Below are positions 8,504-32,055 of a stretch of 64,000 bases of DNA, piece after piece. The notes beneath the pieces were generated by a model. The model worked only from the letters and a program-made list of their open reading frames with translations, ran no database searches and was not told the DNA's origin. How positions within the stretch are numbered: position 1 is the stretch's first letter; each line of letters opens with the position of its first letter. Position numbers and translations under genes: made by a program. Source of the stretch: Salibacteraceae bacterium (GTDB taxonomy: Bacteria > Bacteroidota > Bacteroidia > Flavobacteriales_G > Salibacteraceae); NCBI GenBank assembly GCA_018401875.1, contig JAGYJZ010000008.1, positions 67,090 through 131,089 of the forward strand, written 5' to 3'.

Positions 8504-10314
8504 GATAAATCTTGCAGCTCAACCAGTCGTCTGTATAAGCCTTTACGCTCGAGCAATTCTGTGTGTGTTCCCATTTCCACAATTTCGCCTTTATCGATGA
8601 CAATAATGCGATCGGCATGCTGCACGGTGCTCAACCGGTGGGCGATTACAAAGCTGGTTCTGCCTTCGGTAAGTTTCTGAAGGGCGTCTTGCACCAAGCG
8701 CTCACTCTCCGTATCGAGGGCCGATGTTGCTTCATCCATGATCATAATGGGCGGATCATTGAGGATTGCTCGTGCGATGCTCAAACGCTGCTTCTGACCT
8801 CCTGAGAGTTTATTGCCTGCTTCGCCCACACTTGTGTTTAATCCTTCTGATAAAGAAATCGCGAAACCGTGTGCGTTGGCAGCGTGCAGCGCTTCGATTA
8901 TTTGCTTATCGTTTGCGTGTTGATTGCCAATCAGAAGGTTGTTTTTCACACTGTCATTAAACAAGATACTCTGCTGCGAAACAATGCCAAACAACCCTCT
9001 CAAATCATACACTTTAAATTCTTTGATGTTTTTTCCATCCACCAAAATCTCGCCTTCGCTTACGTCATAAAACCGTGGCATGAGGTCTACCAAAGTGGTT
9101 TTTCCACCACCCGAAGGACCGACCAAGGCAATGGATTCTCCCCGTTTTACATGCAAATTAATATTCTTGAGCACCCACTCTTCGCCATACTTAAACGAGA
9201 CGTTTCTGAATTCAATCGATTCTTTGAACGTTGATATGCTCTGTGCGTTTTCCGACTCCAGCACTTGCTCGTCAGCCTCGAGAATTTCATCGATCCGTTC
9301 GCTGGCAGAAATCCCGCGTTGAACTCTGACAAACGACTCTGACAACGCCCGCGCAGGCGAAATCATTTGCGAGAAAATGACGATGTAGAGAATAAAAAAT
9401 TCACCGTTTAGTGAATTGCCTTCGAGCACCAAATTACCGCCAAACCACAAGATCAACGCGATGGTGATGGCCGAGAGCGTTTCTCCTAGAGGCGATGTCA
9501 AATACTGTTTTCTAAACAAGCGCACCATTAACTTAAAATGTTGATCGTTGACCTTGTTGAAATGCCGATTAAAAATATCCTCGGCTGTAAATCCTTTCAC
9601 GATTCTGATGCCACCTACTGTTTCTTCCAAAGACGTGACCACTTCACCGAGCTCTTCCTGTCCTTTTTTGGCAGTGCGTTTTAGCGATTTTCCAATTCTG
9701 CCGATCATCAAACCAGAAATGGGCAAAACGATGACTACGAATAAGGTCAATTCCCAACTGATTCCGAGCAGCGTTATCAAGTAAAGGACGATCATCACTG
9801 GTTGGCGAAAGAGTGCTTCCAACGCACCCATTACTGACCATTCTACTTCCGCAACATCGTTGGTAAATCGCGCCATGATCTGTCCCTTGCGTTCATCGGT
9901 ATAATAGGCCATGGGCAAGCGCAGCAGCTTTTGGTAGATGTCGCGCCTCAAATCTCTCACCGCCACATTTCGCAGAAACGCCATTTGGTGCAGCGCCAAA
10001 TACCTGAAAATATTCCGCACAAAAAAGAGCACCACAATCACGATGCAGAAGATGAACAATGCCTCTATCGGACCTTCTTCGCGGATGTATTGCTCAAAAG
10101 CCGCGTTAAGTTTATCCAAAAAGCCCGAACCAATGACAGCATCAGGATCTGCTTCTGCCTCAACACTGTCAAACAAAATTTTAAGAAAAGGCACAATGGC
10201 CGAAAAAGACACCACCGAAAACGCAGCATTCAGAATGTTGAACGCAAGGTTTACGGCAATTCTTCCTTTGTAGGGAGCAAGGTATTTAAGTATGTCAATG
10301 AATTTCTTCACCAA
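8500..10314 (-). CDS. ABC transporter permease/ATPase fusion (MsbA-like exporter)
   Basis: 604 aa with an N-terminal 6-TM domain. It has Walker A GPSGGGKTT, signature LSGGQKQRLSIARA and Walker B IMIMDEATSALD. Confidence 0.9.
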   Translation of the reverse strand: MVKKFIDILKYLAPYKGRIAVNLAFNILNAAFSVVSFSAIVPFLKILFDSVEAEADPDAVIGSGFLDKLNAAFEQYIREEGPIEALFIFCIVIVVLFFVRNIFRYLALHQMAFLRNVAVRDLRRDIYQKLLRLPMAYYTDERKGQIMARFTNDVAEVEWSVMGALEALFRQPVMIVLYLITLLGISWELTLFVVIVLPISGLMIGRIGKSLKRTAKKGQEELGEVVTSLEETVGGIRIVKGFTAEDIFNRHFNKVNDQHFKLMVRLFRKQYLTSPLGETLSAITIALILWFGGNLVLEGNSLNGEFFILYIVIFSQMISPARALSESFVRVQRGISASERIDEILEADEQVLESENAQSISTFKESIEFRNVSFKYGEEWVLKNINLHVKRGESIALVGPSGGGKTTLVDLMPRFYDVSEGEILVDGKNIKEFKVYDLRGLFGIVSQQSILFNDSVKNNLLIGNQHANDKQIIEALHAANAHGFAISLSEGLNTSVGEAGNKLSGGQKQRLSIARAILNDPPIMIMDEATSALDTESERLVQDALQKLTEGRTSFVIAHRLSTVQHADRIIVIDKGEIVEMGTHTELLERKGLYRRLVELQDLS

Positions 10315-11669
10315 GAAGGCATCTTGAAAACACCCGTGTAATTGTGCGGAGTAATTTGTTTCAACTCTGCTTTCACTGCATCGCTCACCTTCAGCGAGTC
10401 GATGAATTCAGATAACGAATCAGGTGTGATTTTAGCATTACCTCGCGTCAATGCTTTTAGCGCTTCGTATGGCTTTTCGTATCCCTCGCGCCTGAGGATG
10501 GTTTGAATTGCCTCGGCACAAACTTCCCAATGGCGGTCTAATTCAGCGTGGATGACTTCTTCGTTGAGGATGAGTTTATCCAAGCCTTTTTCGATGGAAG
10601 CCAAGGCGATCAGCGTGTGAGAAAACGGCATTCCGATATTGCGTAAAACTGTACTATCAGTAAGGTCTCGTTGCAAGCGCGAAATCGGCAATTTGGCTGA
10701 TAGGTGTTCAAAAATAGCGTTGGCAAACCCCAGGTTTCCTTCTGCGTTTTCAAAGTCGATCGGATTAACCTTGTGCGGCATCGCTGATGAGCCCACTTCA
10801 CCTTCTTTGATCCGCTGCTTGAAATAGTCCATCGAAATGTAGGCCCAAATGTCGCGACTCAAATCAACCAAAATGGTGTTTACCCGTTTCCATGCGTCCA
10901 TCAGTGCAGCCAAATGATCGTAGTGCTCAATTTGTGTGGTAGTTTGAGAGCGGTAAAGTCCCAATGTATTGTTTACGAAACGATTGGCAAATTCACTCCA
11001 ATCTACCTGGCTGTAGGCCACATGATGTGCATTAAAATTTCCCGTTGCCCCGCCAAATTTGGCAGCAAAAGGAATGTGCTGCATCTGAACAAATTGCTGG
11101 TCGATACGCTCAACGAATACGAACAGTTCTTTTCCCAACATGGTTGGTGAAGCCGGCTGGCCGTGTGTGCGGGCGAGCATCGGAACAGCCTTCCACTCTT
11201 CTGCCAAACAGCGAAGTTTTTCTTGGATAAGCATCAATCGAGGAATCATCACTTTTACTTGAGCCTCTTTCAATGAAAGGGGCACCGCTGTGTTGTTGAT
11301 GTCTTGACTCGTGAGTCCGAAATGCACAAACTCCAACAAGTCAGTTCTTCCAAGTTTTTGGAGTTGTTCTTTTACGAAATACTCAACCGCCTTTACATCG
11401 TGGTTGGTGGTGCGTTCAATGGTTTTGATTTGCTCGGCATCTTGCAGGGTAAAATTCTCATACAAGCTTCTCAGTTTAAGCTGTTCTTCATCTTTCAAAG
11501 GCTTCACACCTTGCAGTCCTTCGGCAGCGAGTAAAATCAGGTATTCTATTTCAATACGAACGCGGTATTTAAACAACGCGTATTCTGAAAAATATTCGAT
11601 AAGCGGTTCTGTGTGGCGAGCATAGCGGCCATCAACGGGAGAAACTGAGGTCAAAGCCTTTCTTGGCAT
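10308..11669 (-). CDS. purB: Adenylosuccinate lyase
   Basis: LTSVSPVDGRYARHTEPLIEYFSEYALFKYRVRIEIEYL matches the PurB N-terminus, and SSAMPHKVNPIDFEN is the signature. I start the gene at the internal ATG (MPRKALTS, 11667-11669) rather than the track's 11732. Confidence 0.9.
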   Translation of the reverse strand: MPRKALTSVSPVDGRYARHTEPLIEYFSEYALFKYRVRIEIEYLILLAAEGLQGVKPLKDEEQLKLRSLYENFTLQDAEQIKTIERTTNHDVKAVEYFVKEQLQKLGRTDLLEFVHFGLTSQDINNTAVPLSLKEAQVKVMIPRLMLIQEKLRCLAEEWKAVPMLARTHGQPASPTMLGKELFVFVERIDQQFVQMQHIPFAAKFGGATGNFNAHHVAYSQVDWSEFANRFVNNTLGLYRSQTTTQIEHYDHLAALMDAWKRVNTILVDLSRDIWAYISMDYFKQRIKEGEVGSSAMPHKVNPIDFENAEGNLGFANAIFEHLSAKLPISRLQRDLTDSTVLRNIGMPFSHTLIALASIEKGLDKLILNEEVIHAELDRHWEVCAEAIQTILRREGYEKPYEALKALTRGNAKITPDSLSEFIDSLKVSDAVKAELKQITPHNYTGVFKMPSW

Positions 11670-11841
11670 GAGTACGATTTTAAAAGATGGCAAATGTAGG
11701 GCATAGAAATGATGTTGAATGTTCTGATTCAAGCTGCCTTCTCTGCATCACAAAATCGAATTCTGAAGATTATAAAAAGATATCTCTTTGATTTTAAGTG
11801 CATTTTGTTTTTTTTTACAGAAATCTTTAAATCTACTCGCT

Positions 11842-12252
11842 ATGAAAAATGTATTGATCCTATTATCCTTTTGCTTCACAGTTGTTACCGGAATCTGTCA
11901 ACCACCCACCACCACCATCTTCAACAACACGAACTGCCCCATGACTGTGACAATGGTTTGCGGTTTTGATGCCGGTTGTGATAGATCATGTTCTTTCAAC
12001 GTCTGTGCGCCTGCAATGATGCCCACACCCGCAATTCCTTGTGCCATCGACTGCCATGAATGGGGTTATGCCATTGTATGCCCCGGATGCCCACCTTGCG
12101 GGGCTCCAGACGATTGTTATACTGTGAGTTGGAATAGTTGTAACGGGTATCCTCAAATTGCAACGGGTACTATTTCTGCTCCGTGCCCCACGTTTTGTCA
12201 GGGTCCTATTTCAGTTGATGCTTCTACGCCTAATCAATTGAACATAAATTGA
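11842..12252 (+). CDS. Small secreted or lipid-anchored cysteine-rich protein, unknown family (136 aa)
   Basis: Signal peptide MKNVLILLSFCFTVVTGIC, followed by 14 Cys in ~117 aa. All 14 are conserved in position with the paralog at 14933-15361. I start the gene at the ATG shared by both copies. Confidence 0.6.
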   Translation: MKNVLILLSFCFTVVTGICQPPTTTIFNNTNCPMTVTMVCGFDAGCDRSCSFNVCAPAMMPTPAIPCAIDCHEWGYAIVCPGCPPCGAPDDCYTVSWNSCNGYPQIATGTISAPCPTFCQGPISVDASTPNQLNIN

Positions 12253-12281
12253 GATTTCAACAAGATACAAAGGCGATTAGC

Positions 12282-12289
12282 TAAATTTG
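12282..12289 (+). promoter_or_regulatory. -7 promoter box TAAATTTG, 4 nt upstream of the ATG of the large gene
   Basis: Exact TAnnTTTG. The same motif at the same 4-nt spacing is present in copy 2 (15379-15386), although the surrounding spacer has diverged. Confidence 0.35.
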
Positions 12290-12293
12290 TTTA

Positions 12294-14864
12294 ATGCATT
12301 TAAGGCTATTAGAAAGTTTGGGCAGGCAAAAGGTATTGAATCTTCTTGGCCTGCTTTTTTTTGCATGCCTACTTAACACTCAGGCTCAGCAAGTTTATGA
12401 CAGATGGTGTTTTAATCATAACTTGGGAATAGATTTCACCTCTAACGGTGCAGTATTCAACGCAAACAACAGCATTGAATCATTTGAGGGTTGCATTAGC
12501 GTGTGCGATGTTAATGGTAAGCTTTTGTTCTATGCAAGCCCCACCACCGTGTGGGACAGTATGCATAACGTAATGCCCAATGGCGATAGTTTACACGGAC
12601 ATATCTCGGCAAAATTGGGAGTTTTTTCTGTTCCAGTGCCTGAAAGCCCTCAAAGACATTATGTTTTTACCTCTGATGCTGCGGAATCATGGCCCTCTTG
12701 GGAAACGCGATATTCCATAGTAAACATGGCCCTTAATAGCGGACTTGGTGATTTAGAACCAGGAAGCAAGAACACGCTACTTTTTGATCATAATCCACAT
12801 ATAGCAGAATCGGTAATAGGATGCTCGATGGCAGGTCAGACAGATGGCTATTGGATATTCTGCTGCAAGGGAAACGAGATTCATATCTTTAAGATAACTG
12901 CGAACGGCATTTCCAGTCATTCGTCATACCAAACCGATTTAATGCCTATTGGAGCCTCATCCCTCGTTGGAGTTTCGGGCAGTGGAAGGCGCTTCATAAT
13001 GAATGGCTTTATGCAAATAGATTCCGTACTTTGGAGGGGATTCACACTTCTTAAATTTGACCCTGTGTTGGGTGCTTTCAATGATGAATTGTTTATACCA
13101 TTATCAACCAATATAGTCAACACCTATGCTGAATTTAGCCCAAACGAAAAATTTCTATACTTCAATCATTTCGAATCCGTCCAAAACATTTCATATGCTC
13201 TAAGCCTCAACTTGAACATATGGGATGAAGAAATCATTCTGAATTCAATAGATACTTTAGGAGTGTTAGATAGCAATCGCTTGTTTCAATTTAAGCTTGG
13301 TGTCAACGACACTATTTATATCAACAGGGATTTGGATTCCAATATGTCTATCGCCACCATTGGCAATCCAGATCAGGTGAATGGGCCTGCTGTGTTTGAT
13401 CCTATTTCGTTCCCTGTTCAATTAAACATCTTTGGTCAACATGGCCCTGGATTGCCCAATAACCTGCAATACGGCAAACCCGACTTTGAAGCGCGCTATA
13501 CCTGCCTTGGTGACAGCACATGGTTTGTGTTTTTTGGATTAGCAGATTCTCTAAAATGGAATTTCAATGACCCCAACGCGGGAATGTTGAATTTTTCCAT
13601 GCTTGAAAATCCATATTTCTTGTTCTCATATCCTGATACATTCTCTGTTGAGTTAATCGTGTATTACAAAAACAACATTGATACCATCAACCACGAAGTA
13701 ATCATAAAAGACACTCTTCCTGATCACATTTTTGTGTTGGAAGATGCTTTCTTGTGCGGAAACGCTGACTCTGTTGTCTTTGACTTTAGCGCATTAAATC
13801 CAACAGAAGTGCTTTGGAGTGATAGTGTAAACACCTTAACCCGAATAATAAAAGATACAGGTAACTACGCTGTACTTATTGCAAACGAGTGTGATACGAT
13901 ACGTGATACTCTCGAGGTGATTTATCAACTAAGACCAAACCTCTCATTAAAAGACACAACCATATGCGCTGATTTTCAACTAGTTTCAGGTGTAAACAAC
14001 CCTCCCACAAACAATATTTGGTCAACGGGCGACACTACCGCTTCCATTACCATCGATACTTCCCTTTCGCCCGATTTAAGTCCATTGGATATTTGGCTAA
14101 CTGCCACCAACGTCTGCGGCACTGTAAGCGATACGATGACCATTGACTTTTTACCAATTCCAAATGCGTCATTACCCGCAGACTCTTCGCATTGCCTCGA
14201 TCAGTCATTTTTTATTTTTCATGAAAACTTTGACAACGTCAACTATTTGTGGAGCGACAGCACTTCGGAAGGACGGTTTAGAATTGATTCCACCCAATCT
14301 GTGTGGCTTATAGCTGAAAATATTTGCGGTGTAGACCGAGACACGTTTAACGTAGAGTTTTACCCCGAAATTAAACCTGAACATGGAGAAGACACAGTCA
14401 TCTGCAATGGCGAAATACTGGTATTGGACGCTACATGGCCAGGCGCCAACTATGCATGGAACACAGGAAGTACAGGCAATTCGATCACTGTTTCTGAAAC
14501 CGACAATTACATCGTCACCATCAGCAGTCCGCCATGCCAGAAAGTAGTATCGCGCACCGTGTCATTCACTGAAGAAGCTTGTAACGAATCGGGATGCAAG
14601 TTTTCGATTCCCAACGTTTTTTCTCCCAACGCAGACGGAATCAACGATGCATTGCGCATCACCAACACCTGCGAACATTTAAATTTCACGGTGTTCATCT
14701 ATAACCGCTGGGGACAATTGGTATTCAGGCAACAAAACAGCTCATCCGGAGCTTCGTGGGACGGAACCATCAATGGAGAAGCTGCAACAGAAGGCACTTA
14801 CTTTGTGGTAGCTATGCACAGCGAAGAAAAAACGCAACGCGCTGCGGTGAGTTTAATGAGGTAA
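12294..14864 (+). CDS. Large secreted protein with a gliding-motility-associated / T9SS type B C-terminal sorting domain (856 aa)
   Basis: Signal peptide ending TQAQ, then an N-terminal ~450-aa domain starting QQVYDRWCF. Four ~65-aa Cys-bracketed repeats follow. The C-terminus is CKFSIPNVFSPNADGINDALRI...FIYNRWGQLVF...GTYFVV. Confidence 0.8.
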   Translation: MHLRLLESLGRQKVLNLLGLLFFACLLNTQAQQVYDRWCFNHNLGIDFTSNGAVFNANNSIESFEGCISVCDVNGKLLFYASPTTVWDSMHNVMPNGDSLHGHISAKLGVFSVPVPESPQRHYVFTSDAAESWPSWETRYSIVNMALNSGLGDLEPGSKNTLLFDHNPHIAESVIGCSMAGQTDGYWIFCCKGNEIHIFKITANGISSHSSYQTDLMPIGASSLVGVSGSGRRFIMNGFMQIDSVLWRGFTLLKFDPVLGAFNDELFIPLSTNIVNTYAEFSPNEKFLYFNHFESVQNISYALSLNLNIWDEEIILNSIDTLGVLDSNRLFQFKLGVNDTIYINRDLDSNMSIATIGNPDQVNGPAVFDPISFPVQLNIFGQHGPGLPNNLQYGKPDFEARYTCLGDSTWFVFFGLADSLKWNFNDPNAGMLNFSMLENPYFLFSYPDTFSVELIVYYKNNIDTINHEVIIKDTLPDHIFVLEDAFLCGNADSVVFDFSALNPTEVLWSDSVNTLTRIIKDTGNYAVLIANECDTIRDTLEVIYQLRPNLSLKDTTICADFQLVSGVNNPPTNNIWSTGDTTASITIDTSLSPDLSPLDIWLTATNVCGTVSDTMTIDFLPIPNASLPADSSHCLDQSFFIFHENFDNVNYLWSDSTSEGRFRIDSTQSVWLIAENICGVDRDTFNVEFYPEIKPEHGEDTVICNGEILVLDATWPGANYAWNTGSTGNSITVSETDNYIVTISSPPCQKVVSRTVSFTEEACNESGCKFSIPNVFSPNADGINDALRITNTCEHLNFTVFIYNRWGQLVFRQQNSSSGASWDGTINGEAATEGTYFVVAMHSEEKTQRAAVSLMR

Positions 14865-14932
14865 TAAACTAAACCCTTGATTATTAGTATTTTTTGCTTT
14901 TTTTTTGTGGGAAATCTTTAAATCTACTCGCT

Positions 14933-15361
14933 ATGAAAAACGTATTAATTATCCTAACTTTTTGCTTTTGCGCCACCTACGGAATATGTCAGGCGCCTCC
15001 CATGAACATCAATAACACATTGGGTTGCGACATGCTCGTCAGGCTAAACTGCGGCAATGATGTTGGTTGTGACGCAGCTTGCTCAGTGACTATTTGCATT
15101 CCAGCAATGGGCGCAGTTCTTACTCCTCCATGCTCAATTGATTGCCAAGAATGGGGTATGGCTATGGTTTGTCCGGCAGACCCATGTCCGAACATTTGCG
15201 GTAATACAGCCGATGGAAGCTGTTATATCGTGAGCTGGAACAATTGCAATTCTTATCCAACCATAGCCACAGGCAACATTAATCCCCCTTGCCCAACCTC
15301 CTGCTTGGGAACGATCACGGTTGATGCTTCAATGCCAAACACATTAAACATCACGCCTTAA
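14933..15361 (+). CDS. Small cysteine-rich secreted protein, paralog of 11842-12252 (142 aa)
   Basis: Signal peptide MKNVLIILTFCFCATYGIC, followed by the same 14-Cys scaffold (..IDCQEWG.A.VCP..CY.VSWN.CN.YP.IATG..PCPT.C.G.I.VDAS.PN.LNI). Confidence 0.6.
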   Translation: MKNVLIILTFCFCATYGICQAPPMNINNTLGCDMLVRLNCGNDVGCDAACSVTICIPAMGAVLTPPCSIDCQEWGMAMVCPADPCPNICGNTADGSCYIVSWNNCNSYPTIATGNINPPCPTSCLGTITVDASMPNTLNITP

Positions 15362-15378
15362 GGCACACTGTAAATAAC

Positions 15379-15386
15379 TAGATTTG
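15379..15386 (+). promoter_or_regulatory. -7 promoter box TAGATTTG, 4 nt upstream of the ATG of the second large gene
   Basis: Exact TAnnTTTG at the same spacing as copy 1. Confidence 0.35.
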
Positions 15387-15390
15387 CCTC

Positions 15391-17963
15391 ATGCACAGCG
15401 GTTTTTCAGAGTCACTATATCATCCAAAACACATTATGTTTATTGGTTTATTGATTCTAAACTGCATGAACACAGTTCGGGCTCAACAAGTTTTTGACCG
15501 GTGGTGTTTTTCTTACAACATGGGCATTGACTTTACGTCTTCAGGCGCAGTATTTAACCCCGGAAACAATATAGCAGCACCTGAAGGATGCATAAGTGTC
15601 TGCGATGACACCGGAAATCTTTTGTTGTATGCCAGCCCCACAACGGTGTGGGACAGTGCACACAACGTAATGCCCAATGGCGACAGCCTGGACGGACATA
15701 TATCCGCAAAACTCGGTGTGTTTTCAGCACCCGTTCCTGGGAGCCCACAAAGGCACTATGTGTTTACGAACGATGCTGTTGAAACTTATCCCTTCGAAAT
15801 GGAAACCCGCTATTCCATCGTAAACATGACGCTCAATGGTGGACTCGGGGATGTGGAGTCAGGAAGCAAAAACACACTGCTATTTGATTATGATCCTCAT
15901 GTGTCTGAAGTAATTACGGGATGTGCTATCGCGGGTCAAACCGAAGGCTATTGGTTGTTTTTGAGAAAGGCAAACGAAATACACGTTTATAAAATCACCT
16001 CAGCAGGGATCAACAGCCATACCTCGTATCAAGCGAATTTGATAATTGCAGTTTCGCACCTAATTGGGCTTCCGGGAAGCGGCAGATACTTTTATATGGA
16101 TGGTATTAAGCATCTAGATTCCATGCCTTGGAGAGGCATAATGCTTGCAAAGTTTGATCCCGTAAATGGTACGTTCAGTGATGAATTGTTCATCCCAATT
16201 ACCAATAATTTAAGCAATGGTGCGGTTGTGTTTGCAGAAACTAGCCCAAACGAACGATACGTATACCTAAGTCATTTCGTATTTGCAGAAAACAATACCT
16301 ATGTACTAAGTTTAGACTTGGAAACTTGGGATCAAGACAGTATTATTCATTCCATCGATACTGTTGGGGTTTTGCATAACAATCGATTATTTGAGTTCAA
16401 ATTAGGCATCAACGATACTATTTACATCAATCGTGATTTGGATTCAAACCTGGCCTTGGCCACCATCGGAAATCCAGATCAAATAAATGGGCCTGCCGTA
16501 TTTGAGCCTGCAGCTTTTCCAGTGCAGTTAAACGCTTTGAGCCAGCATGGCCAAGGCCTACCAAACAAGCTCAACTACGGCAAACCCGACTTTGAAGCGC
16601 GCTATACCTGCCTTGGTGACAGCACATGGTTTGTGTTTTTTGGATTGGCAGATTCTCTAAAATGGAATTTCAATGACCCCAACGCGGGAATGTTGAATTT
16701 TTCCACGCTTGAAAATCCATATTTCTTATTCTCCCAGCCAGACGCATTCGCTGTTGAGTTAATCGCGTATTACAAAAACAACATCGATACCATCTCGCAC
16801 GAAGTAATCATCACAGACACTCTTCCTGATCAGATTTTTGAGTCGCGAGACGGCTTTTTGTGCGGAACTAATGACTCGATTAAATTTGACTTCAGCACAC
16901 TAAATCCAACAATGGTGCTTTGGAGTGATAGTGTAAACACAATAAATAGATCCATCACCGACACAGGGGTATTCTCCGTAGTTATTGCAAACGAATGTGA
17001 CACATTGCGAGATACGCTGGTTGTGCGTTTCGCCACTGAACCGAGCATCACTCTAACTGACACCACTTTGTGTGAGGGTTCGCAACTGATTTTAGAAATG
17101 GGCGATTCCACAGGTAATAACCTCTGGTCTACAGGTGACACCAACGCCTCTATTATCATCGATACTTCGCTTTCGCCCGATTTAAGTCCATTGGAAATTT
17201 GGCTGACAGCCAGCAACGCCTGCGGCACTGTAAGCGATACGATGACCGTAAGTTTTTTACCGATGCCGATAGCTGACCTTCCGCGTGATTCGGTGCACTG
17301 CCTTGAAGCGGCTTTTTACATTTCTCACAGCAATACACAAAACGTGAATTATTGGTGGAACGACAGCACTTCGGATGAGCAAATCTTGATCAACACTACT
17401 GCAACAGTATGGCTAATCGCTGAAAATGAATGCGGAATGGACGCTGATACATTCAGTGTAAACTTTTATCCTGAAATAAAATCAGAACTCGGAGAAGATA
17501 CTTTGGTCTGTATTAGTGAAAGCGTATTGCTTGACGCGTCATGGCCGGGAGCAAACTTCGTGTGGAGCACCGGAAATACGGACGACTCCATCACCGTATC
17601 TGAATCTGATACGTACATCGTCACCATCAGCAGTCCGCCATGCCAGAAAGTAGTATCGCGCACCGTGTCATTCACTGAAGAAGCTTGTAACGAATCGGGA
17701 TGCAAGTTTTCGATTCCCAACGTTTTTTCTCCCAACGCAGATAGGTCCAACGTGCCCATCATATCTTCACCGAACATTTAAATTTCACGGTGTTCATCTA
17801 TAACCGCTGGGGTCAATTGGTATTCAGTCAACAAAACAGCTCATCCGGAGCTTCTTGGGACGGAACCATCAATGGAGAAGCTGCAACAGAAGGCACTTAC
17901 TTTGTGGTAGCTATGCACAGCGAAGAAAAAACGCAACGCGCTGCGGTGAGTTTGGTTAGATAA
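15391..17963 (+). pseudogene. Paralog of the T9SS type-B protein with its C-terminal sorting domain disrupted (7-nt net deletion and a scrambled patch)
   Basis: The ORF stops at 17781 (..FSPNADRSNVPIISSPNI*). The rest of the sorting domain (EHLNFTVFIYNRWGQLVFSQQ...AAVSLVR*) continues in another frame over 17772-17963. Sequence on either side of the 30-nt patch (17742-17771) is 97-100% identical to copy 1. Confidence 0.6.
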
Positions 17964-18031: not shown

Positions 18032-18832
18032 ATGATTGAAATAGCAGGATATATAAGTGCCGTGATCATTGGCATTTCACTCGGGTTAATTGGCGGTGGT
18101 GGTTCCATTCTCACTGTGCCCGTTTTGGTGTATTTATTAGGCACTTCACCCATTATGGCCACGGCCTATTCGCTTTTTATCGTTGGTGGTTCGAGCCTGA
18201 TTGGGGTGATTGACTACGCACGAAAAAAACTCGTTGATTACAAAACCGCCTTGGCCTTTGGGTTGCCCAGCTTAGTAGCTGTTTTCCTCACACGAAAATT
18301 CTTGGTTCCTGCCATTCCCAACGAATTGTTTAGCCTTGGTGCGTTCACCATGACCAAAGGCATGTTTCTAATGGTGCTGTTTGCCCTTTTGATGCTGTTT
18401 GCCTCTATCGGCATGATCAAGAAGAAAAAGAACAAAGTTGACCATAAACCCAAAACACTAGAACCTTGGCAAACGATGCTCATCGTTTTGACGGAAGGGT
18501 TTATCGTGGGCACACTCACAGGACTTGTAGGTGCTGGCGGTGGTTTTTTAATCATCCCGGCTTTGGTGCTTTTTGCTGGACTTGAAATGAAGAAAGCCAT
18601 CGGCACTTCATTGCTCATCATCGCTGTGAAATCACTGGTAGGGTTTCTAGGTGATGTTTCAAACTACGCCATCGATTGGAACTTTTTATTGGTCTTCACC
18701 GCACTGGCTGTGGTAGGCATTTTCATTGGCAGTTTCTTGTCGACCAAAATTGACGGTCAAAAATTAAAAGTGGGCTTTGGCTGGTTTGTGTTAGTGATGG
18801 GTGCGTTCATCCTGCTCAAAGAATTGTTCTGA
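18032..18832 (+). CDS. Sulfite exporter TauE/SafE family membrane protein
   Basis: 266 aa and polytopic. It has the duplicated G-rich motif (LGLIGGGGSILTVP / GLVGAGGGFLIIP) typical of TauE/DUF81. Confidence 0.85.
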   Translation: MIEIAGYISAVIIGISLGLIGGGGSILTVPVLVYLLGTSPIMATAYSLFIVGGSSLIGVIDYARKKLVDYKTALAFGLPSLVAVFLTRKFLVPAIPNELFSLGAFTMTKGMFLMVLFALLMLFASIGMIKKKKNKVDHKPKTLEPWQTMLIVLTEGFIVGTLTGLVGAGGGFLIIPALVLFAGLEMKKAIGTSLLIIAVKSLVGFLGDVSNYAIDWNFLLVFTALAVVGIFIGSFLSTKIDGQKLKVGFGWFVLVMGAFILLKELF

Positions 18833-20517: not shown

Positions 20518-21426
20518 TCAGTTCTTGACAATTCTTACCACATGTGCCTTTCCTGTATGATTGAGATGAAGAAAGTAAATCCCCTGGCTCAAATGAGAGA
20601 CATCAAAAAAACCAGCTGCGGGCGAATCCAGTTGTATTGACTTGCCGTGAACATCTAACAGTTTATCAATTTGAATCGCAGTATTCTGAGCAAAGTTTAG
20701 CTGAAACTTGTCTTCAATAGGGTTAGGGAAAATGATCAATTCTGGTCTATTTGAGGTCATCTCTTCAACTTGAAGTGGATAAACAAAAATTGATTCGTTT
20801 GAAACAGTGGGCATGAAGCAATTCATTGAATCATAGACTACAACAGCATAACTTGACTTGGTAGAGCCGTATTGACAAAAAATACGAGGCTTAGCGCTAC
20901 TTGCAGGATCAATAAAATCAGTGCTATCTGTCCACTGCCACTTCACCAAGGGGTAGCTCGAAGATGCCACGGGAGTGATTTTAATGGTATCTCCATGTTC
21001 AGCGTAAACGTGGACACTTCCCAGATGTATAAAAAATGTGGAATGTGTAAACTTCATAGAATCCATGGCCACCATTCCGTTGCTATCGGTCACCTCAAGA
21101 TACAATTTCACACTACCGTTCAGCTCATTTGATTCAATCGCACTTACAATGAAAGGATTGGCAGACGCGGTGTCATCCAATATATCACCGGCCCAATAGT
21201 TATGGATTACAGATACCACAGGTTCATTTATAAACCATCTATATGTATAAGGAGGAGTGCCACCTGTAACAGTGGGCAAACCTCCGACCGAAAGATAAAC
21301 GGAGTCATAGGTCACGCCATATGGACAAAAATGTTTGTCTTCGCCAGCATCAACATGCAGAGGCCCTTGTGCCCAAGAAAATGTATTGAAGAACAATACT
21401 CCAGCGATGAAAAGCAATTTCTTCAT
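20518..21426 (-). CDS. Secreted protein with a T9SS type A (Por) C-terminal sorting domain
   Basis: Signal peptide ..FSWAQ. The C-terminus is IIFPNPIEDKFQLNF...DVSHLSQGIYFLHLNHTGKAHVVRIVKN. The N-terminal module (DAGEDKHFC...GGTPPYTYRW) is shared with 22327-23256. Confidence 0.7.
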   Translation of the reverse strand: MKKLLFIAGVLFFNTFSWAQGPLHVDAGEDKHFCPYGVTYDSVYLSVGGLPTVTGGTPPYTYRWFINEPVVSVIHNYWAGDILDDTASANPFIVSAIESNELNGSVKLYLEVTDSNGMVAMDSMKFTHSTFFIHLGSVHVYAEHGDTIKITPVASSSYPLVKWQWTDSTDFIDPASSAKPRIFCQYGSTKSSYAVVVYDSMNCFMPTVSNESIFVYPLQVEEMTSNRPELIIFPNPIEDKFQLNFAQNTAIQIDKLLDVHGKSIQLDSPAAGFFDVSHLSQGIYFLHLNHTGKAHVVRIVKN

Positions 21427-21611: not shown

Positions 21612-21959
21612 GTGGTACTCAAAGTCAGAACTGTAATTGCTTACAAACACTACTTTGAAGAATTTTTACTTGCTCAACCTAATAAGGTGCAGGACAAAAT
21701 TTTCAAAGTGATTGAAATTATAGAAACGTATGAAAGAATCCCTAGCACGTATCTCAAGTCTATAAAAGGAGCTGATGGACTTTATGAAGCACGAATAAAA
21801 CTGGGATCAGATATTTGGAGGGTTTTCTGCTTTTTTCATAGAGGGAAGTTAGTGATTTTGTTGAACGGATTTGTAAAGAAATCACAGAAAACTCCTAAAA
21901 AAGAAATAGACAAAGCACTTAGGTTAATGACTGAATATTATGCCACTAAAAACGAGTGA
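21612..21959 (+). CDS. Type II toxin, RelE/ParE superfamily (HigB / phage Gp49-like)
   Basis: 115 aa with a GTG start. YKHYFEEFLLAQPNKVQDKIFKVIEIIE...GLYEARIKLGSDIWRVFCFF..GKLVILLNGFVKKSQKTPKKEI matches the Gp49/DUF891 pattern. The toxin-first gene order is the HigBA arrangement. Confidence 0.8.
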   Translation: MVLKVRTVIAYKHYFEEFLLAQPNKVQDKIFKVIEIIETYERIPSTYLKSIKGADGLYEARIKLGSDIWRVFCFFHRGKLVILLNGFVKKSQKTPKKEIDKALRLMTEYYATKNE

Positions 21960-21960
21960 G

Positions 21961-22251
21961 ATGGACACAAAAACATGGACGGAAATAAAAGACACTGTTT
22001 ACGGTAAAAAAGGAACCACACGAAGAGACGAGCTTGAACTTGACTTTGAATCGTTTAAGATAGGTCTGTTATTGCGAAAAGCCCGAGAAGATAAAAACTT
22101 GACACAAGAACAACTCGGAATGCTCGTCAATAAGAAAAGAACCTACATCTCAAGGATTGAAAATGATGGGAGCAACATGACCTTAAAAACTCTATACGAC
22201 ATTGTGGAAAAAGGTCTTGGTGGGAAAGTTAAAATATTGATTGAAGTGTAA
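21961..22251 (+). CDS. XRE-family HTH antitoxin (HigA-like)
   Basis: The ATG lies 1 nt after the toxin stop codon. The HTH region is LRKAREDKNLTQEQLGMLVNKKRTYISRIENDGSNMTLKTL. Confidence 0.8.
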   Translation: MDTKTWTEIKDTVYGKKGTTRRDELELDFESFKIGLLLRKAREDKNLTQEQLGMLVNKKRTYISRIENDGSNMTLKTLYDIVEKGLGGKVKILIEV

Positions 22252-22326: not shown

Positions 22327-23256
22327 TCATCGAAGGATCTGAAACTTAAACGCTTCTTTTTCGCCAGAAACATATTTTACGCGTGCCACAAAAAAACCAT
22401 GCTCCTTTATCTCAATTTCACATGACGATGAGTTGACTGCTAACCTTTCCCGCAGCATCCTTCCGTGCATGTCAAAAATCCTAGTTGATTCAATGTTCTC
22501 TCTTCCTGTAATAGAAAGAGTGCTTCCATTGATGGCCCATGTTGATTTTTCTTTTCCATAACGATCCATCACACTTAACGGCTCGATAATAAACCCTTCA
22601 TAGGTGCCGATAGATCCAGTGCATCCAAGAGAATCAGTAACGGCTAACCCATTCCAATACGGTGATGGTCCGTCTTGCACAATCACTTGCCTCGATGGAA
22701 GATAAACCTCAGGGTAGACATTATAATCATAACGCTCTCCGATCAAGTTTGGAGAATCGCCCCAGTCGAATGTGTATGGTGGAAACCCTCCTGCAAATCC
22801 TTGTGGTGATATTGTTTGGGTATCGCCCGGATACGTATAAATCATCGCATTGCCATCCAACGTTGTCCAACTCACATACCAAAACTGAACTGAATCTATG
22901 GCAAGTCCATTAGAGTCATCGCTTAGAGTTAATATAAAGATAATCGGCCCTCTTTCATTTGAAGGGAGAGTTCTGATTAAAAAAGGATTTGAATCTGTTG
23001 AATCAGATAAAAAATCTGAGGCATAATACATCAAATTAGGTGCACTTGGAAATGGCACATATGGTTTTGGATAAATATCCCACGTATATATGAAGTTGCC
23101 ATTTCCTCCGATAGCAGAAGGAGAGCCACCAATGATGAATGAATCAGGCACCACTGAGCAGAAAATACTGTCGTTTCCTGCATCTGCCACCAATGGCTCT
23201 TGTGCCCAAGAAACCACACATATCGATATAAACGCACTAAATAGCAGTTTTTTCAT
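22327..23256 (-). CDS. Secreted protein, paralog of 20518-21426, with a T9SS type-A-like C-terminal domain
   Basis: Signal peptide ..VSWAQ and N-terminal module DAGNDSIFC...GGNGNFIYTW. The C-terminal ~75 aa form a beta-rich tail (..IFDMHGRML...GFFVARVKY...FKFQILR) that is less canonical than in the paralog. Confidence 0.6.
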   Translation of the reverse strand: MKKLLFSAFISICVVSWAQEPLVADAGNDSIFCSVVPDSFIIGGSPSAIGGNGNFIYTWDIYPKPYVPFPSAPNLMYYASDFLSDSTDSNPFLIRTLPSNERGPIIFILTLSDDSNGLAIDSVQFWYVSWTTLDGNAMIYTYPGDTQTISPQGFAGGFPPYTFDWGDSPNLIGERYDYNVYPEVYLPSRQVIVQDGPSPYWNGLAVTDSLGCTGSIGTYEGFIIEPLSVMDRYGKEKSTWAINGSTLSITGRENIESTRIFDMHGRMLRERLAVNSSSCEIEIKEHGFFVARVKYVSGEKEAFKFQILR

Positions 23257-28867: not shown

Positions 28868-30760
28868 TTATTTTTTTGGAGATTGGATTCCTCTGTTTTG
28901 AGCCATTTTTTCGAGCCTTTGTTGAAGGCCTGATTTTTTCGTGGGCTTCTTTTTATTCGCTTGAATTTTTGCGTGAATCTTGTCTTCGTCAATGAAGAAT
29001 CGCTTGATAATGAATTGCTGCAACATCGTGATCACGTTGGCAGAAAGGTAATAGTAGCTCAACCCTGACGAATAACTATTAAAGAAGAACAAGAGCATGA
29101 ATGGCATCAAGTAAATCATCATTTTCATCTGTGGCATTTGAGCGTTGGCACCGCCTGACATGTCCATGTTGTATTTCGAGTAGAAGAACGTTGAAATGGC
29201 CATCAAAATGGTGAATAAACTCACGTGGTCGCCATAGAAAGGAATTTCAAAAGGCAGTTGCATGATCGAGTCGTAAGAACTCAAATCTTCTGCCCATAAA
29301 AACGATTCTTGCCTCAGCTCGATGCTCGCGGGAAAGAATCGAAACATGGCGTATAATATCGGCAACTGCAAAAGCATCGGGACACATCCCGCCATCGGAT
29401 TTACGCCCGCTTGGCGATACAAGCCCATCACGGCCTGCTGCTTCTGCATGGCGTCTTTATTTTCGAACTTCTTGTTCAGCTCGTCAATCTCAGGTTTCAA
29501 TACGCGCATTCTGGCGCTGGAAACATAATTTCTCCAAGTAAGAGGAAACAAGAGCAACTTAATAATGATGGTCAAAATCAGGATGATGATTCCGTAGCCC
29601 AAAGTCGTGTATGTCTCAAGGAAATTGAAGATCGGGATCACCAACCAACGGTTTACCCAACCAAAAATGGTCCATCCCAAATCAATTTGATCTTCCAGAC
29701 CAATGCCCATATTGTTGAGGGTTTGGTAGTGGTTTGGACCGATGTAAAATTTAAATGGAACCGATGGGTCGCGTTCATTTCCAAACTCTAAGCCCAACGA
29801 TGCAGAAAGGCCTTTTGTGTATTTTTCATCCGTCAACTCAATGGTTTCCACTGAAGCACCTTCTTTGCTAAACCCTTTATCAGAAATAAGAGCCGCAGAG
29901 AAAAACTGCTGCTTGAAAGCCACCCATTGCACAGATGCTTCGAGCACTTCAGCTTCGTAGCTGGTTTCAGAAACATAATCGGCATCATCGGTCATGTACT
30001 TGTAATACATGGTCGTTTTCATCTGCTCTTGTTCGCGGCTCTTTTCATGAAATGGCGCGTTCATACTCCAATTCAATTCAAACAAATCATCGCTCGAACG
30101 AAGTAAATTATCCATTCCCACCACCGTCACTTCAGCTTGCACCATATAAGATTTGCCTTCTTCGATGGAATAAGTCAATTCTAAATACTGGCTGTTGTTG
30201 TCGCCATAAATGCGATAAACAGCTGTCGATTCTGTCATCTCTCCCGGCACCTCTTCAAAGTAGAGTTCAGCGCTTGAAAGCTCAGTGTTTTGATCGAGCC
30301 AGAACTTTAAATTGAAGGAAGAGGTTTCTTTGTCAAACAGAAACAGCGGCATTGAATCGTAGGTTACATATTCAACCAACTCTGCCGTAACCGGAGCTGC
30401 ACCTTTATTCGAAAGGGTAAACTTGACGAAATCGTTTTGAATGGTATGCAGTTTTTCTTCACCGCTTGCTGCTGCAGCAAAGGATCCAAAGCGTTGCTTG
30501 TTTTTGATTTTGTCTAAGGAATCCTGGAGGGCTTGAGCCACTGAATCAAGTTGCACGTCATTCCGCTTCACAGTATCAGCGGAAGCAATGTTCGCTTCCG
30601 TCATTCGCGCAGCGCGATCTTCAGCTGCCTGCACGGCCGCAATGCTGTCTTGAACGCGGTTTTGAGCTTCAATCTCCTCAGACGATGGTTGCATCCAAAA
30701 GCTATATCCAATCAGAATAGCCCCAATTAAAACCAACCCTGTTAACGTATTTCTATCCAT
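28868..30760 (-). CDS. yidC: Membrane protein insertase YidC
   Basis: 630 aa with the N-terminal anchor MDRNTLTGLVLIGAILIGYSFW and a large periplasmic domain. The C-terminal 60-kDa insertase core includes GCVPMLLQLPILYAMF. Confidence 0.9.
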   Translation of the reverse strand: MDRNTLTGLVLIGAILIGYSFWMQPSSEEIEAQNRVQDSIAAVQAAEDRAARMTEANIASADTVKRNDVQLDSVAQALQDSLDKIKNKQRFGSFAAAASGEEKLHTIQNDFVKFTLSNKGAAPVTAELVEYVTYDSMPLFLFDKETSSFNLKFWLDQNTELSSAELYFEEVPGEMTESTAVYRIYGDNNSQYLELTYSIEEGKSYMVQAEVTVVGMDNLLRSSDDLFELNWSMNAPFHEKSREQEQMKTTMYYKYMTDDADYVSETSYEAEVLEASVQWVAFKQQFFSAALISDKGFSKEGASVETIELTDEKYTKGLSASLGLEFGNERDPSVPFKFYIGPNHYQTLNNMGIGLEDQIDLGWTIFGWVNRWLVIPIFNFLETYTTLGYGIIILILTIIIKLLLFPLTWRNYVSSARMRVLKPEIDELNKKFENKDAMQKQQAVMGLYRQAGVNPMAGCVPMLLQLPILYAMFRFFPASIELRQESFLWAEDLSSYDSIMQLPFEIPFYGDHVSLFTILMAISTFFYSKYNMDMSGGANAQMPQMKMMIYLMPFMLLFFFNSYSSGLSYYYLSANVITMLQQFIIKRFFIDEDKIHAKIQANKKKPTKKSGLQQRLEKMAQNRGIQSPKK

Positions 30761-30856
30761 TTCTAATGCTCGCTAATTTGAGGCGGCAAAGGTATGTTTT
30801 CACCCTTAGTTGAACATTGATTTCATGGATAAGTGGAAAAGAAGCGCCAAGACTGG

Positions 30857-30912
30857 AAAAAAAAGAACCGAGACGGCATCGAATCTTGCAGATTTCGTGC
30901 CTGTCTCGGTTC
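30857..30912 (-). terminator. Rho-independent terminator downstream of the M42 peptidase gene
   Basis: On the minus strand, the hairpin gaaccgagacaggca...tgccgtctcggttc is followed by U8. Confidence 0.55.
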
Positions 30913-30933
30913 AAATGAAAAACTGATTTTCAG

Positions 30934-32055
30934 TTATTTAATGTATCTGAAATCGTGGTTGTTTTCAATTTTCAACAACGATTGATAGATCAATCGAATC
31001 ACGCTTTCTACGTCATTGCGATGCACCATTTCAACCGTGGTGTGCATATAGCGCAGCGGCAATGATATCAATGCCGAAGCCACTCCACCCGCGCCAAACG
31101 CAAATGCGTCAGTATCGGTGCCGGTGTATCTGCTGGCAGCCATGCGCTGGAAGTCGATGTTGTTGTCTTTGGCGGCTCCAATGATTAATTTCAACAAGTT
31201 GTTCTGCACCGCGGGCGCATAGCTCAACACAGGGCCATCGCCCGATTTGAAATCGCCTTGCTCGAGTTTGTTCATCATCGGTGTGGTGGTGTCATGACAC
31301 ACATCAGTTACGATGGCTACGTTCGGACGCAAGCGCTCAACGATCATCTCAGCACCGCGCAGGCCAATTTCTTCCTGCACCGAGTTGACGATGTACAATC
31401 CAAACGGCAATTTCTTTTTATTCTCTTTGAGCATGCGTGCCACTTCAGCGATCATGAATCCTCCGATGCGGTTGTCGAGCGCTCGACCCACAAAATGGAC
31501 CTTGTTAAGTACGATAAACTCGTCAGGATAAGTAATCACACAACCAACGTGAACGCCCATTTCTTCGACTTCCTTTTTTGATCGAGCACCGCAGTCTAAC
31601 CAAATGTTTGAAACCTTAGGAATGTCTTCTTTTTCGGATTTGCGCACGTGAATCGCTGGCCAGCCAAACACCGCTGTTACCGGACCTTTGTCTGTATGAA
31701 TGATCACTCGCTTTGAAGGTGCTATCTGGTGGTCAGAACCTCCGTTGCGCTTTACGTAAATCATTCCGTCATCGGTTATGTAGTGCACAAACCATGAAAT
31801 CTCATCGGCATGCGCCTCAATCACCACTTTAAATTCAGCATCAGGATTGATAATGCCCACTGCTGTTCCGTAAGTATCAACGATGTAATCGTCAATGTAA
31901 GGCTTCATGTATTCGAGCCAAATTTTTTGTCCTTCGGCTTCGAATCCTGTGGGCGAAGGGTTATTTAAATACTTTTCTAAAAATTTCATCGATTTGTCCG
32001 TCAACACTTTCGGTGCTGATGCCTTGGCGCTCTTTGCTTTATCTGTCTTTGCCAT
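30934..32055 (-). CDS. M42 family metallopeptidase (glutamyl aminopeptidase / FrvX-like)
   Basis: The motifs AHADEISW, GRALDNRIGG, VQEEIGLRGA and the C-terminal ..PLRYMHTTVE are typical of M42. I chose the start at MAKTDKAK. Confidence 0.85.
   Translation of the reverse strand: MAKTDKAKSAKASAPKVLTDKSMKFLEKYLNNPSPTGFEAEGQKIWLEYMKPYIDDYIVDTYGTAVGIINPDAEFKVVIEAHADEISWFVHYITDDGMIYVKRNGGSDHQIAPSKRVIIHTDKGPVTAVFGWPAIHVRKSEKEDIPKVSNIWLDCGARSKKEVEEMGVHVGCVITYPDEFIVLNKVHFVGRALDNRIGGFMIAEVARMLKENKKKLPFGLYIVNSVQEEIGLRGAEMIVERLRPNVAIVTDVCHDTTTPMMNKLEQGDFKSGDGPVLSYAPAVQNNLLKLIIGAAKDNNIDFQRMAASRYTGTDTDAFAFGAGGVASALISLPLRYMHTTVEMVHRNDVESVIRLIYQSLLKIENNHDFRYIK

Follow-up and report, generated by a model that had tools for sequence, protein, structure and literature searches.

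A twofold S-L gene block between purB and a TauE/SafE exporter gene

The 64-kb stretch of DNA analysed here, referred to as the window (64,000 nucleotides (nt) of contig JAGYJZ010000008.1), belongs to a marine Flavobacteriales chromosome close to Salibacteraceae. It carries two copies of a two-gene unit in the order S-L-S-L (Table 1), in which a gene encoding a small, cysteine-rich protein with a signal peptide (S) precedes a gene encoding a large, adhesin-like protein (L). The S family and its pairing with L are the subject of this report. The genes of the two units are called S1, L1, S2 and L2; homologous loci in other assemblies carry three-digit numbers (L001 and so on).

Table 1. Features of the S-L-S-L block and its borders (window coordinates).
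Feature	Position	Strand	Remarks
purB	10308-11732	-	borders the block on the S1 side
Unit 1 leader	11780-11841	+	T-rich stretch and conserved AAATCTTTAAATCTACTCGCT directly 5' of the S1 start
S1	11842-12252	+	open reading frame (ORF), 136 residues from ATG
TAAATTTG box	12282-12289	+	TAnnTTTG, in the 41-nt S1-L1 spacer, 4 nt 5' of the L1 ATG
L1	12294-14864	+	ORF, 856 residues
L1 signal peptide	12294-12386	+	cleavage A31/Q32 by inspection
L1 beta-propeller	~12396-13478	+	
L1 PKD-like module	~13482-13706	+	
L1 four Ig-like Cys-bracketed repeats	~13719-14591	+	
L1 type B C-terminal domain	14604-14864	+	
Gene-conversion tract	13511-13610	+	98% identical to 16617-16716; background 50-70%
Gene-conversion tract, last Ig-like repeat and C-terminal domain	14511-14860	+	97-100% identical to 17617-17960 except in the frameshift patch
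Unit 2 leader	14875-14932	+	homologous to the unit 1 and L003 leaders
S2	14933-15361	+	ORF, 142 residues
TAGATTTG box	15379-15386	+	TAnnTTTG, in the 29-nt S2-L2 spacer
L2	15391-17781	+	ORF as assembled, 796 residues
Scrambled patch in L2	about 17740-17776	+	~44 nt, ~12 substitutions and a net 7-nt deletion; frame shifted
Out-of-frame L2 C-terminal remnant	17790-17963	+	57 residues; E = 4e-32 to L1 residues 800-856
TauE/SafE exporter gene	18032-18832		borders the block on the L2 side

The two units were offset by 3091 nt at the S starts, 3097 nt at the L starts and 3099 nt at their ends. S1 and S2 were 56-59% identical (E = 3e-49) and L1 and L2 about 68-69% identical over 788 residues (E = 0), which confirmed the proposal of an earlier sequence-only reading of this DNA that two colinear units of the same architecture are present. 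Other elements of that description also stood. The S ORFs have the reported lengths, signal peptides and 14 positionally conserved cysteines, according to the ORF map and the alignment; AAATCTTTAAATCTACTCGCTATGAAAAA of the conserved leader was found in both units; and each of the 29-41 nt spacers contained exactly one TAnnTTTG box.

For S1 and S2 the proportion of synonymous differences (pS) was 0.87 and that of non-synonymous differences (pN) 0.26; for L1 and L2 the synonymous distance (dS) was 1.3 and pN 0.19. Across the small-ORF comparisons pN was 0.17-0.26 against a saturated pS of 0.8-0.87 (pN/pS about 0.2-0.3), and the ratio of non-synonymous to synonymous substitution rates (dN/dS) was 0.08 for the L016 pair. 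Since synonymous sites were saturated between the copies, the duplication is old, and the low level of non-synonymous relative to synonymous differences shows that both S and L are under purifying selection. The block is an old tandem duplication of leader, S, short spacer and L, partly homogenised by gene conversion. No mobile-element genes were found at its borders; as searches of PADLOC and PHROGs were also negative, a defence-system or phage origin was rejected. An RNA element in the conserved leader was likewise rejected, because an Rfam scan of the whole window, leader included, gave no match.

The unit 1 leader marked the start of similarity both to unit 2 and to a homologous locus, L003 (blastn aligned L003 5008-5112 with window 11780-11881), and AAATCTTTAAATCTACTCGCT precedes both S genes. 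The TAnnTTTG box, which occurs 19 times on the plus strand of the whole window, is a Bacteroidetes -7-type motif and may function as a promoter element. Throughout the clade, each L gene has this box conserved 4-5 nt 5' of its annotated start (at about 5555 in L003). A box so near the start would imply a leaderless transcript or one with a very short leader, or else that L truly starts further downstream; in the database L1 has 848 residues, 8 fewer than the 856-residue ORF. A sigma-70 promoter scan gave 11 sites, compared to 15.1 expected. No terminator-like site was found on the plus strand in the S-L spacers or in the L1-S2 spacer, and S-L spacers spanned 7-41 nt across co-oriented pairs, so that co-transcription of S and L is possible, as judged from the layout of the sequence.

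Near-identical tracts form a mosaic with a background of 50-70% identity (Table 1), as is characteristic of gene conversion. Two short-read assemblies with S1 (L001 and L002), independent of each other, break off at the first tract, at window positions 13499 and 13529. This shows that the repeats are real and that assembly is fragile at this point. The second tract contains the lesion in L2. The sequence-only reading had the large ORF of unit 2 intact up to 17963, which was not upheld: L2 ends in FSIPNVFSPNADRSNVPIISSPNI followed by a stop codon at 17781 (the last residues before the stop are also given as FSPNADRSNVPIISSPNI), a frameshift having cut the protein 12 residues into its C-terminal domain. 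The scrambled patch destroys the motif ADGIND..LRITN, whereas L1 and the L003 homolog both retain the canonical ADGIND.LRITN.C, which indicates that the patch is derived. Downstream of the stop, the out-of-frame remnant is 96% identical to the tail of L1. Since the patch lies inside a conversion tract, the lesion may be genuine or may have arisen in the consensus, and L2 may be a real pseudogene or the product of misassembly. On its sequence as assembled, L2 is predicted to have no working secretion signal at its C-terminus; owing to the frameshift, no C-terminal domain match was obtained for it in Pfam or NCBIfam.

An undescribed small protein and a conventional large one

In S1 the signal peptide comprises residues 1-19, the mature protein starts at Gln20, and the C-terminus reads LNIN; S1 and S2 share 14 conserved cysteines in the mature part and two in the signal peptide. 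When a profile of S1 and S2 was run exhaustively with HMMER against 1.84 billion representatives, 21 clusters were recovered (E <= 1e-3), all of 89-156 residues. A word-indexed protein search with S1 had returned only the query, despite the existence of homologs that are 56-61% identical; the exhaustive profile search was required, and word-indexed searching can badly under-recover short, compositionally odd proteins. Locus searches with 3- and 6-member S alignments recovered only lineages that were already known.

All 21 aligned members have a hydrophobic leader followed by a small residue and Gln, as have L1 and L2. In Bacteroidetes, Gln directly follows the cleavage site of signal peptidase I (the Q-rule; PMC5837995). 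S, L1 and L2 fit this rule for signal peptidase I substrates, and cleavage at these sites is predicted. The family alignment begins with I.NN..C, has a central EW..A.VC motif and ends in L.IN; C55, C83, C86 and C119 are invariant, and five more cysteines are conserved at >= 90%. An AlphaFold2 model of S built with the family alignment had a predicted local distance difference test score (pLDDT) of 87.6 and a predicted template modelling (TM) score of 0.77, with nine strands in an all-beta fold. S is predicted to lie outside the cytoplasm and probably folds into a compact domain of beta-strands, held in place by about seven putative disulfides.

S1 and S2 had no match in Pfam or NCBIfam; a Pfam search with the 21 members gave only two chance matches (E >= 0.019). 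There was no match to S in PADLOC or PHROGs, the family profile matched no PDB sequence at E <= 10, and Foldseek found no neighbour of the S model at E <= 1e-3 in the PDB (best E = 0.05, TM-score 0.41) or in BFVD. No T9SS (type IX secretion system) C-terminal domain (CTD) is present in S. The weak top Foldseek neighbours were thaumatin-like proteins, the MoHrip2 elicitor and the TssJ/SciN lipoproteins, which like S are small, all-beta and extracytoplasmic; S is not a member of any of these groups, as no match reached E = 1e-3 and there was no sequence similarity. The notion that S is a diverged L domain was rejected, as hhalign gave a probability of 5.6% against the L family. A lipoprotein was rejected by inspection: Gly-Ile precedes Cys19, there is no lipobox, and Cys19 is absent from P0044 and most other members. 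The S family, with proteins of ~130-156 residues (about 115 when mature), is thus undescribed and unannotated; the libraries searched contained no relative of it in sequence or structure, in agreement with the initial statement that S could not be mapped to any described family.

L is of a known kind. The L1 signal peptide, identified by inspection, has hydrophobic residues at 13-28 followed by TQA/QQ (AlphaFold2 placed a helix at 11-27), and that of L2 ends VRA/QQ. The translations contain the reported QQV(Y/F)DRWCF directly after the signal peptide, and the four Cys-bracketed repeats that had been noted are about 70 residues each, with Cys pairs at 488/533, 558/608, 634/678 and 704/748. The proposed identity of the L1 C-terminal domain as a type B T9SS sorting domain was confirmed by matches above cut-off to both PF13585 (CHU_C; 70.9 bits, cut-off 27) and TIGR04131 (58.1 bits, cut-off 35), each over residues 771-856. 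No other Pfam or NCBIfam domain was found in L1, and no toxin or enzyme domain.

The AlphaFold2 model of L1 (pLDDT 77) was all-beta: about residues 35-395 formed a propeller-like domain, which was followed by a PKD-like module, the four immunoglobulin (Ig)-like repeats and the CTD. Foldseek comparison of this model with the PDB matched the Ig arrays of GhpA (E = 2e-19) and the YVTN propeller plus PKD of 1l0q (E = 7e-10, TM-score 0.42 on the target), and also contactin-type Ig arrays and PorZ. The best of these structural matches are the Aureispira T9SS grappling-hook protein GhpA (PDB 9flp, 9fly), with tandem Ig-like modules like those of L1, and the archaeal surface-layer fragment 1l0q, with a propeller followed by PKD as in L1. 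They are generic and at the level of modules (TM-score 0.15-0.42, ~12% identity) and imply no functional equivalence; GhpA is also a far larger protein than L. Such module-level resemblance is typical of Bacteroidota surface adhesins. In its make-up L1 is an adhesin-like T9SS type B cargo of the conventional kind, and the CTD match makes it a candidate for T9SS-dependent export.

No core T9SS genes were found in the 64-kb window. A protein with a type A T9SS CTD is encoded at 20518-21426; together with the kinship to Salibacteraceae (the closest relative is a Salibacteraceae (Flavobacteriales) metagenome-assembled genome (MAG)), it lends indirect support to the presence of a T9SS in the host. 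There is no porP/sprF-like gene directly 3' of either cargo gene, L1 being followed by S2 and L2 by the TauE/SafE exporter gene, and none of ten other envelope-type proteins of the window matched the PorP_SprF domain. The sequence-only reading was correct about the absence of an adjacent PorP/SprF partner; the significance it gave to that absence was not sustained, because three of the 12 type B substrates of Flavobacterium johnsoniae are 'orphans' served by a distant SprF-like shuttle (PMC12618676). L1 resembles these orphans (Fjoh_1123, Fjoh_1720, Fjoh_4934; unlinked shuttle Fjoh_1677; PMC12618676) in its type B CTD, in its lack of a porP/sprF-like neighbour and in its adhesin-like, multi-domain passenger. 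A gene for a conserved small Cys-rich secreted protein lies 5' of L1; such a gene is not described for the orphans. The SprB/SprF and Fjoh_3952/Fjoh_3951 pairs (PMC9143113, PMC12618676) likewise place a type B cargo in a conserved two-gene unit; in these pairs, however, the partner is a PorP/SprF outer-membrane beta-barrel of ~300 residues encoded downstream of the cargo, whereas S is a soluble-looking all-beta protein of ~115 residues, encoded upstream and without similarity to PorP/SprF.

S-L units in other genomes

In a Salibacteraceae MAG (L003/L008) an S gene (61-73% identical) lies directly upstream of an L gene (67%). S2 was 73% identical to this Salibacteraceae S (S3), and was closer to it than to S1. 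L003 is syntenic with window positions 25.6-31.3 kb (Crp 81%, YidC 76%). In the regions compared (L003 2920-8491 and window 28868-32055), its S-L block lies between yidC and an M42 peptidase gene, where the window has only a gap of 173 nt. DNA similarity between L003 and the window block begins ~60 nt upstream of the S start codon. Because the two genomes are syntenic and the block sits at different sites, the S-L block has been relocated as a unit; no mobile-element genes were visible in connection with this relocation. The 173-nt gap of the window contains a long GC-rich hairpin around 30860-30920.

A second lineage (L016-L018 and L021-L023, one marine lineage represented by six samplings) also has the order S-L-S-L, with spacers of 7 nt. 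These copies are distant from those of the window (S ~39% and L ~30% identical), although the L match is full-length (E = 1e-85). The two units of this lineage were 80% and 85% identical to each other, indicating a separate, younger duplication. A third arrangement was found in L020, in which a full-length L homolog (E = 1e-110) on the minus strand and an S gene on the plus strand lie head-to-head, 146 nt apart.

In a neighbour-joining tree of S, the co-oriented, L-linked S genes formed one subclade, the L020 S fell in a neighbouring group, and the S-only loci were placed elsewhere. S2 was sister to the L003 S with S1 outside, and so the duplication seen in the window predates the split of the two genomes. 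When the S and L trees were compared for congruence, L identities were found to be a mosaic across copies, as a result of recombination and gene conversion.

Elsewhere in the window, two paralogous secreted proteins of ~300 residues are encoded on the minus strand, namely the type A CTD protein mentioned above and a second at 22327-23256. Between them lie two small, overlapping plus-strand ORFs (21612-21959 and 21940-22251); the latter reads like an XRE-type helix-turn-helix antitoxin, and the two may form a toxin-antitoxin pair.

Weighing a functional link between S and L

Both families are rare, and their adjacency has survived two duplications, a relocation, an inversion and deep divergence; this speaks for selection on linkage within one S subfamily, and selection on linkage in turn speaks for a functional connection. 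The explanation we favour, tentatively and short of regarding it as probable, is that this adhesin subfamily has in S an extracytoplasmic partner or accessory stabilised by disulfides. L would leave the cytoplasm by way of its Sec signal peptide and then, by analogy with the orphan type B substrates, be handed over to a PorP/SprF-type shuttle encoded elsewhere. S would also be exported by Sec, with cleavage exposing its N-terminal Gln; made together with L, it would bind L as an extracytoplasmic partner or accessory subunit. One S subfamily has been kept beside an L-family gene through duplication, relocation and inversion; other S subfamilies act without an adjacent L. The genes, the S family, the selection on it, its fold class and the recurrent linkage are established here; the physical interaction, the location of S, its disulfides and its role are inferred.

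A more specific form of this proposal, which we consider rather doubtful, is that S is a CTD-less, disulfide-locked subunit that binds the beta-propeller of the adhesin in the periplasm, and either escorts it to the translocon or is exported with it as a two-component surface adhesin.

A number of observations weigh against the partnership. In a scaffold from TARA (L019, 1-1046), a lone S gene stands between a divergent purB and TauE, the very flanks of the window block. Two tandem S genes without L were found in L014 and four in L015; a single S gene with no L beside it was found in L009; in L010-L013, scattered S-like genes with only 10 Cys lie near unrelated genes; and L004-L007 have tandem L homologs without S. 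The divergent genes of L020 mean that an operon is not required, and the conserved box before L suggests, from its sequence and position, that L may have its own promoter. The CxxC and CxxxC spacings of S are also compatible with metal binding, and S has no T9SS CTD that would account for its passage to the cell surface. Furthermore, the neighbour-joining tree of S carries no support values, and contexts were resolved for only about eight independent S lineages. The connection between S and L is not obligatory. The original proposal that S and L work as a pair was therefore upheld in part: the unit recurs in distant lineages (L016-L018/L021-L023, L003 and L020), was duplicated in two lineages and was relocated, but the pairing is not general.

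Several of the loci without S-L pairs had features of their own. The L019 S belongs to another S subclade. In L015 (2145-8024) the four tandem S paralogs are followed by genes for a LytS-type histidine kinase and a LytTR response regulator, and in L009 (10001-11763) a LytTR regulator gene lies about 600 nt from the lone S; this proximity possibly reflects a regulatory link, or is a coincidence. In L010 (12626-19335) and L012 (17483-20414), which are Cryomorphaceae-type, a conserved gene cluster near the 10-Cys S-like genes encodes proteins of 132-138, 1116, 701 and 222 residues, all without signal peptides and without Pfam matches.

The same distribution lends itself to another explanation, namely that S is an autonomous family of small extracytoplasmic proteins, for instance stable periplasmic ones with a binding, protective or metal- or thiol-related role, and that its adjacency to L in one subclade reflects inherited layout or regulation shared with another envelope gene rather than physical partnership. 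This is a real possibility, although we do not think it probable. It fits the finding that S stands alone or in S-only arrays in most of the lineages examined, and occurs singly at the purB-TauE site that holds S-L-S-L in the window; the putative promoter box of L and the cysteine spacings of S are in keeping with it, and, as a single subclade takes in every co-oriented, L-linked S gene, the linkage could have had one origin. What it does not readily explain is that the block stayed intact when it was duplicated in tandem (at least twice), relocated (once) and inverted (once), and that linkage was kept at S identities of ~35-40% and L identities of ~30%, which is hard to account for without selection for linkage. 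Given the rarity of both families, chance adjacency is very unlikely.

It is improbable that S acts in the periplasm as an inhibitor or immunity-like protein and neutralises an activity of L while the folded L awaits T9SS export there, with the S-only arrays as orphan immunity clusters. A small protein with a signal peptide and no CTD would indeed stay periplasmic, S diverges faster than L (59% compared to 69% identity in the window), S-only arrays are multi-copy, and S is tightly linked to a large secreted protein. However, neither Pfam nor NCBIfam shows a recognisable toxin or enzyme domain in L, so that by sequence S-L does not appear to be a toxin-immunity pair; its fold matches are to adhesin-like propeller, PKD and Ig modules, and PADLOC was negative. 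Moreover, an immunity gene usually comes after its toxin gene, but S is encoded upstream of L, and a Cys content of 12% is atypical for immunity proteins.

Equally unlikely, in our estimation, is that S, without a CTD of its own, hitch-hikes on L through the T9SS and serves at the surface as a co-adhesin subunit. Proteins pass through the T9SS in folded form, a stable disulfide-rich fold would suit extracellular life, and S is linked to L and probably co-expressed with it; on the other hand, no precedent for CTD-less hitch-hiking was found in the T9SS literature searched, S is without an adjacent L in many genomes, and L2 as assembled has lost its CTD while S2 is intact. That the small ORFs are spurious, in which case the locus would contain just an adhesin gene, duplicated and preceded by a long leader, is a view to which we give practically no weight: a word-indexed search did return S1 alone, and S2 was absent from the database proteins returned, but the 21 clusters with the same length and Cys framework, pN far below pS, a confident AlphaFold2 model and a signal peptide with the Gln rule in every member establish the S ORFs as genes and settle a doubt that the sequence-only reading had itself raised.

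In conclusion, L is an adhesin-like T9SS cargo of the orphan type B kind, and the new part is the S family and its pairing with L; the locus is a moderately interesting lead and not a proven new system. The pairing was not described in the T9SS literature searched, and nothing relevant was found there on Cys-rich small proteins tied to the T9SS. To our knowledge, type B cargo is much less understood than type A, and the only known partners of type B cargo are the PorP/SprF shuttles. If S is autonomous, the locus is an orphan type B adhesin gene duplicated by ordinary processes. The locus also defines an unannotated, disulfide-rich family without a structural relative. If S does bind the propeller, it would represent an accessory principle distinct from the PorP/SprF shuttles, a dedicated class of partner for a subset of type B adhesins. 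A small, conserved protein that has kept company with one adhesin subfamily through duplication, relocation and inversion would offer a concrete, testable case of a possible new accessory or co-adhesin from marine Flavobacteriia.

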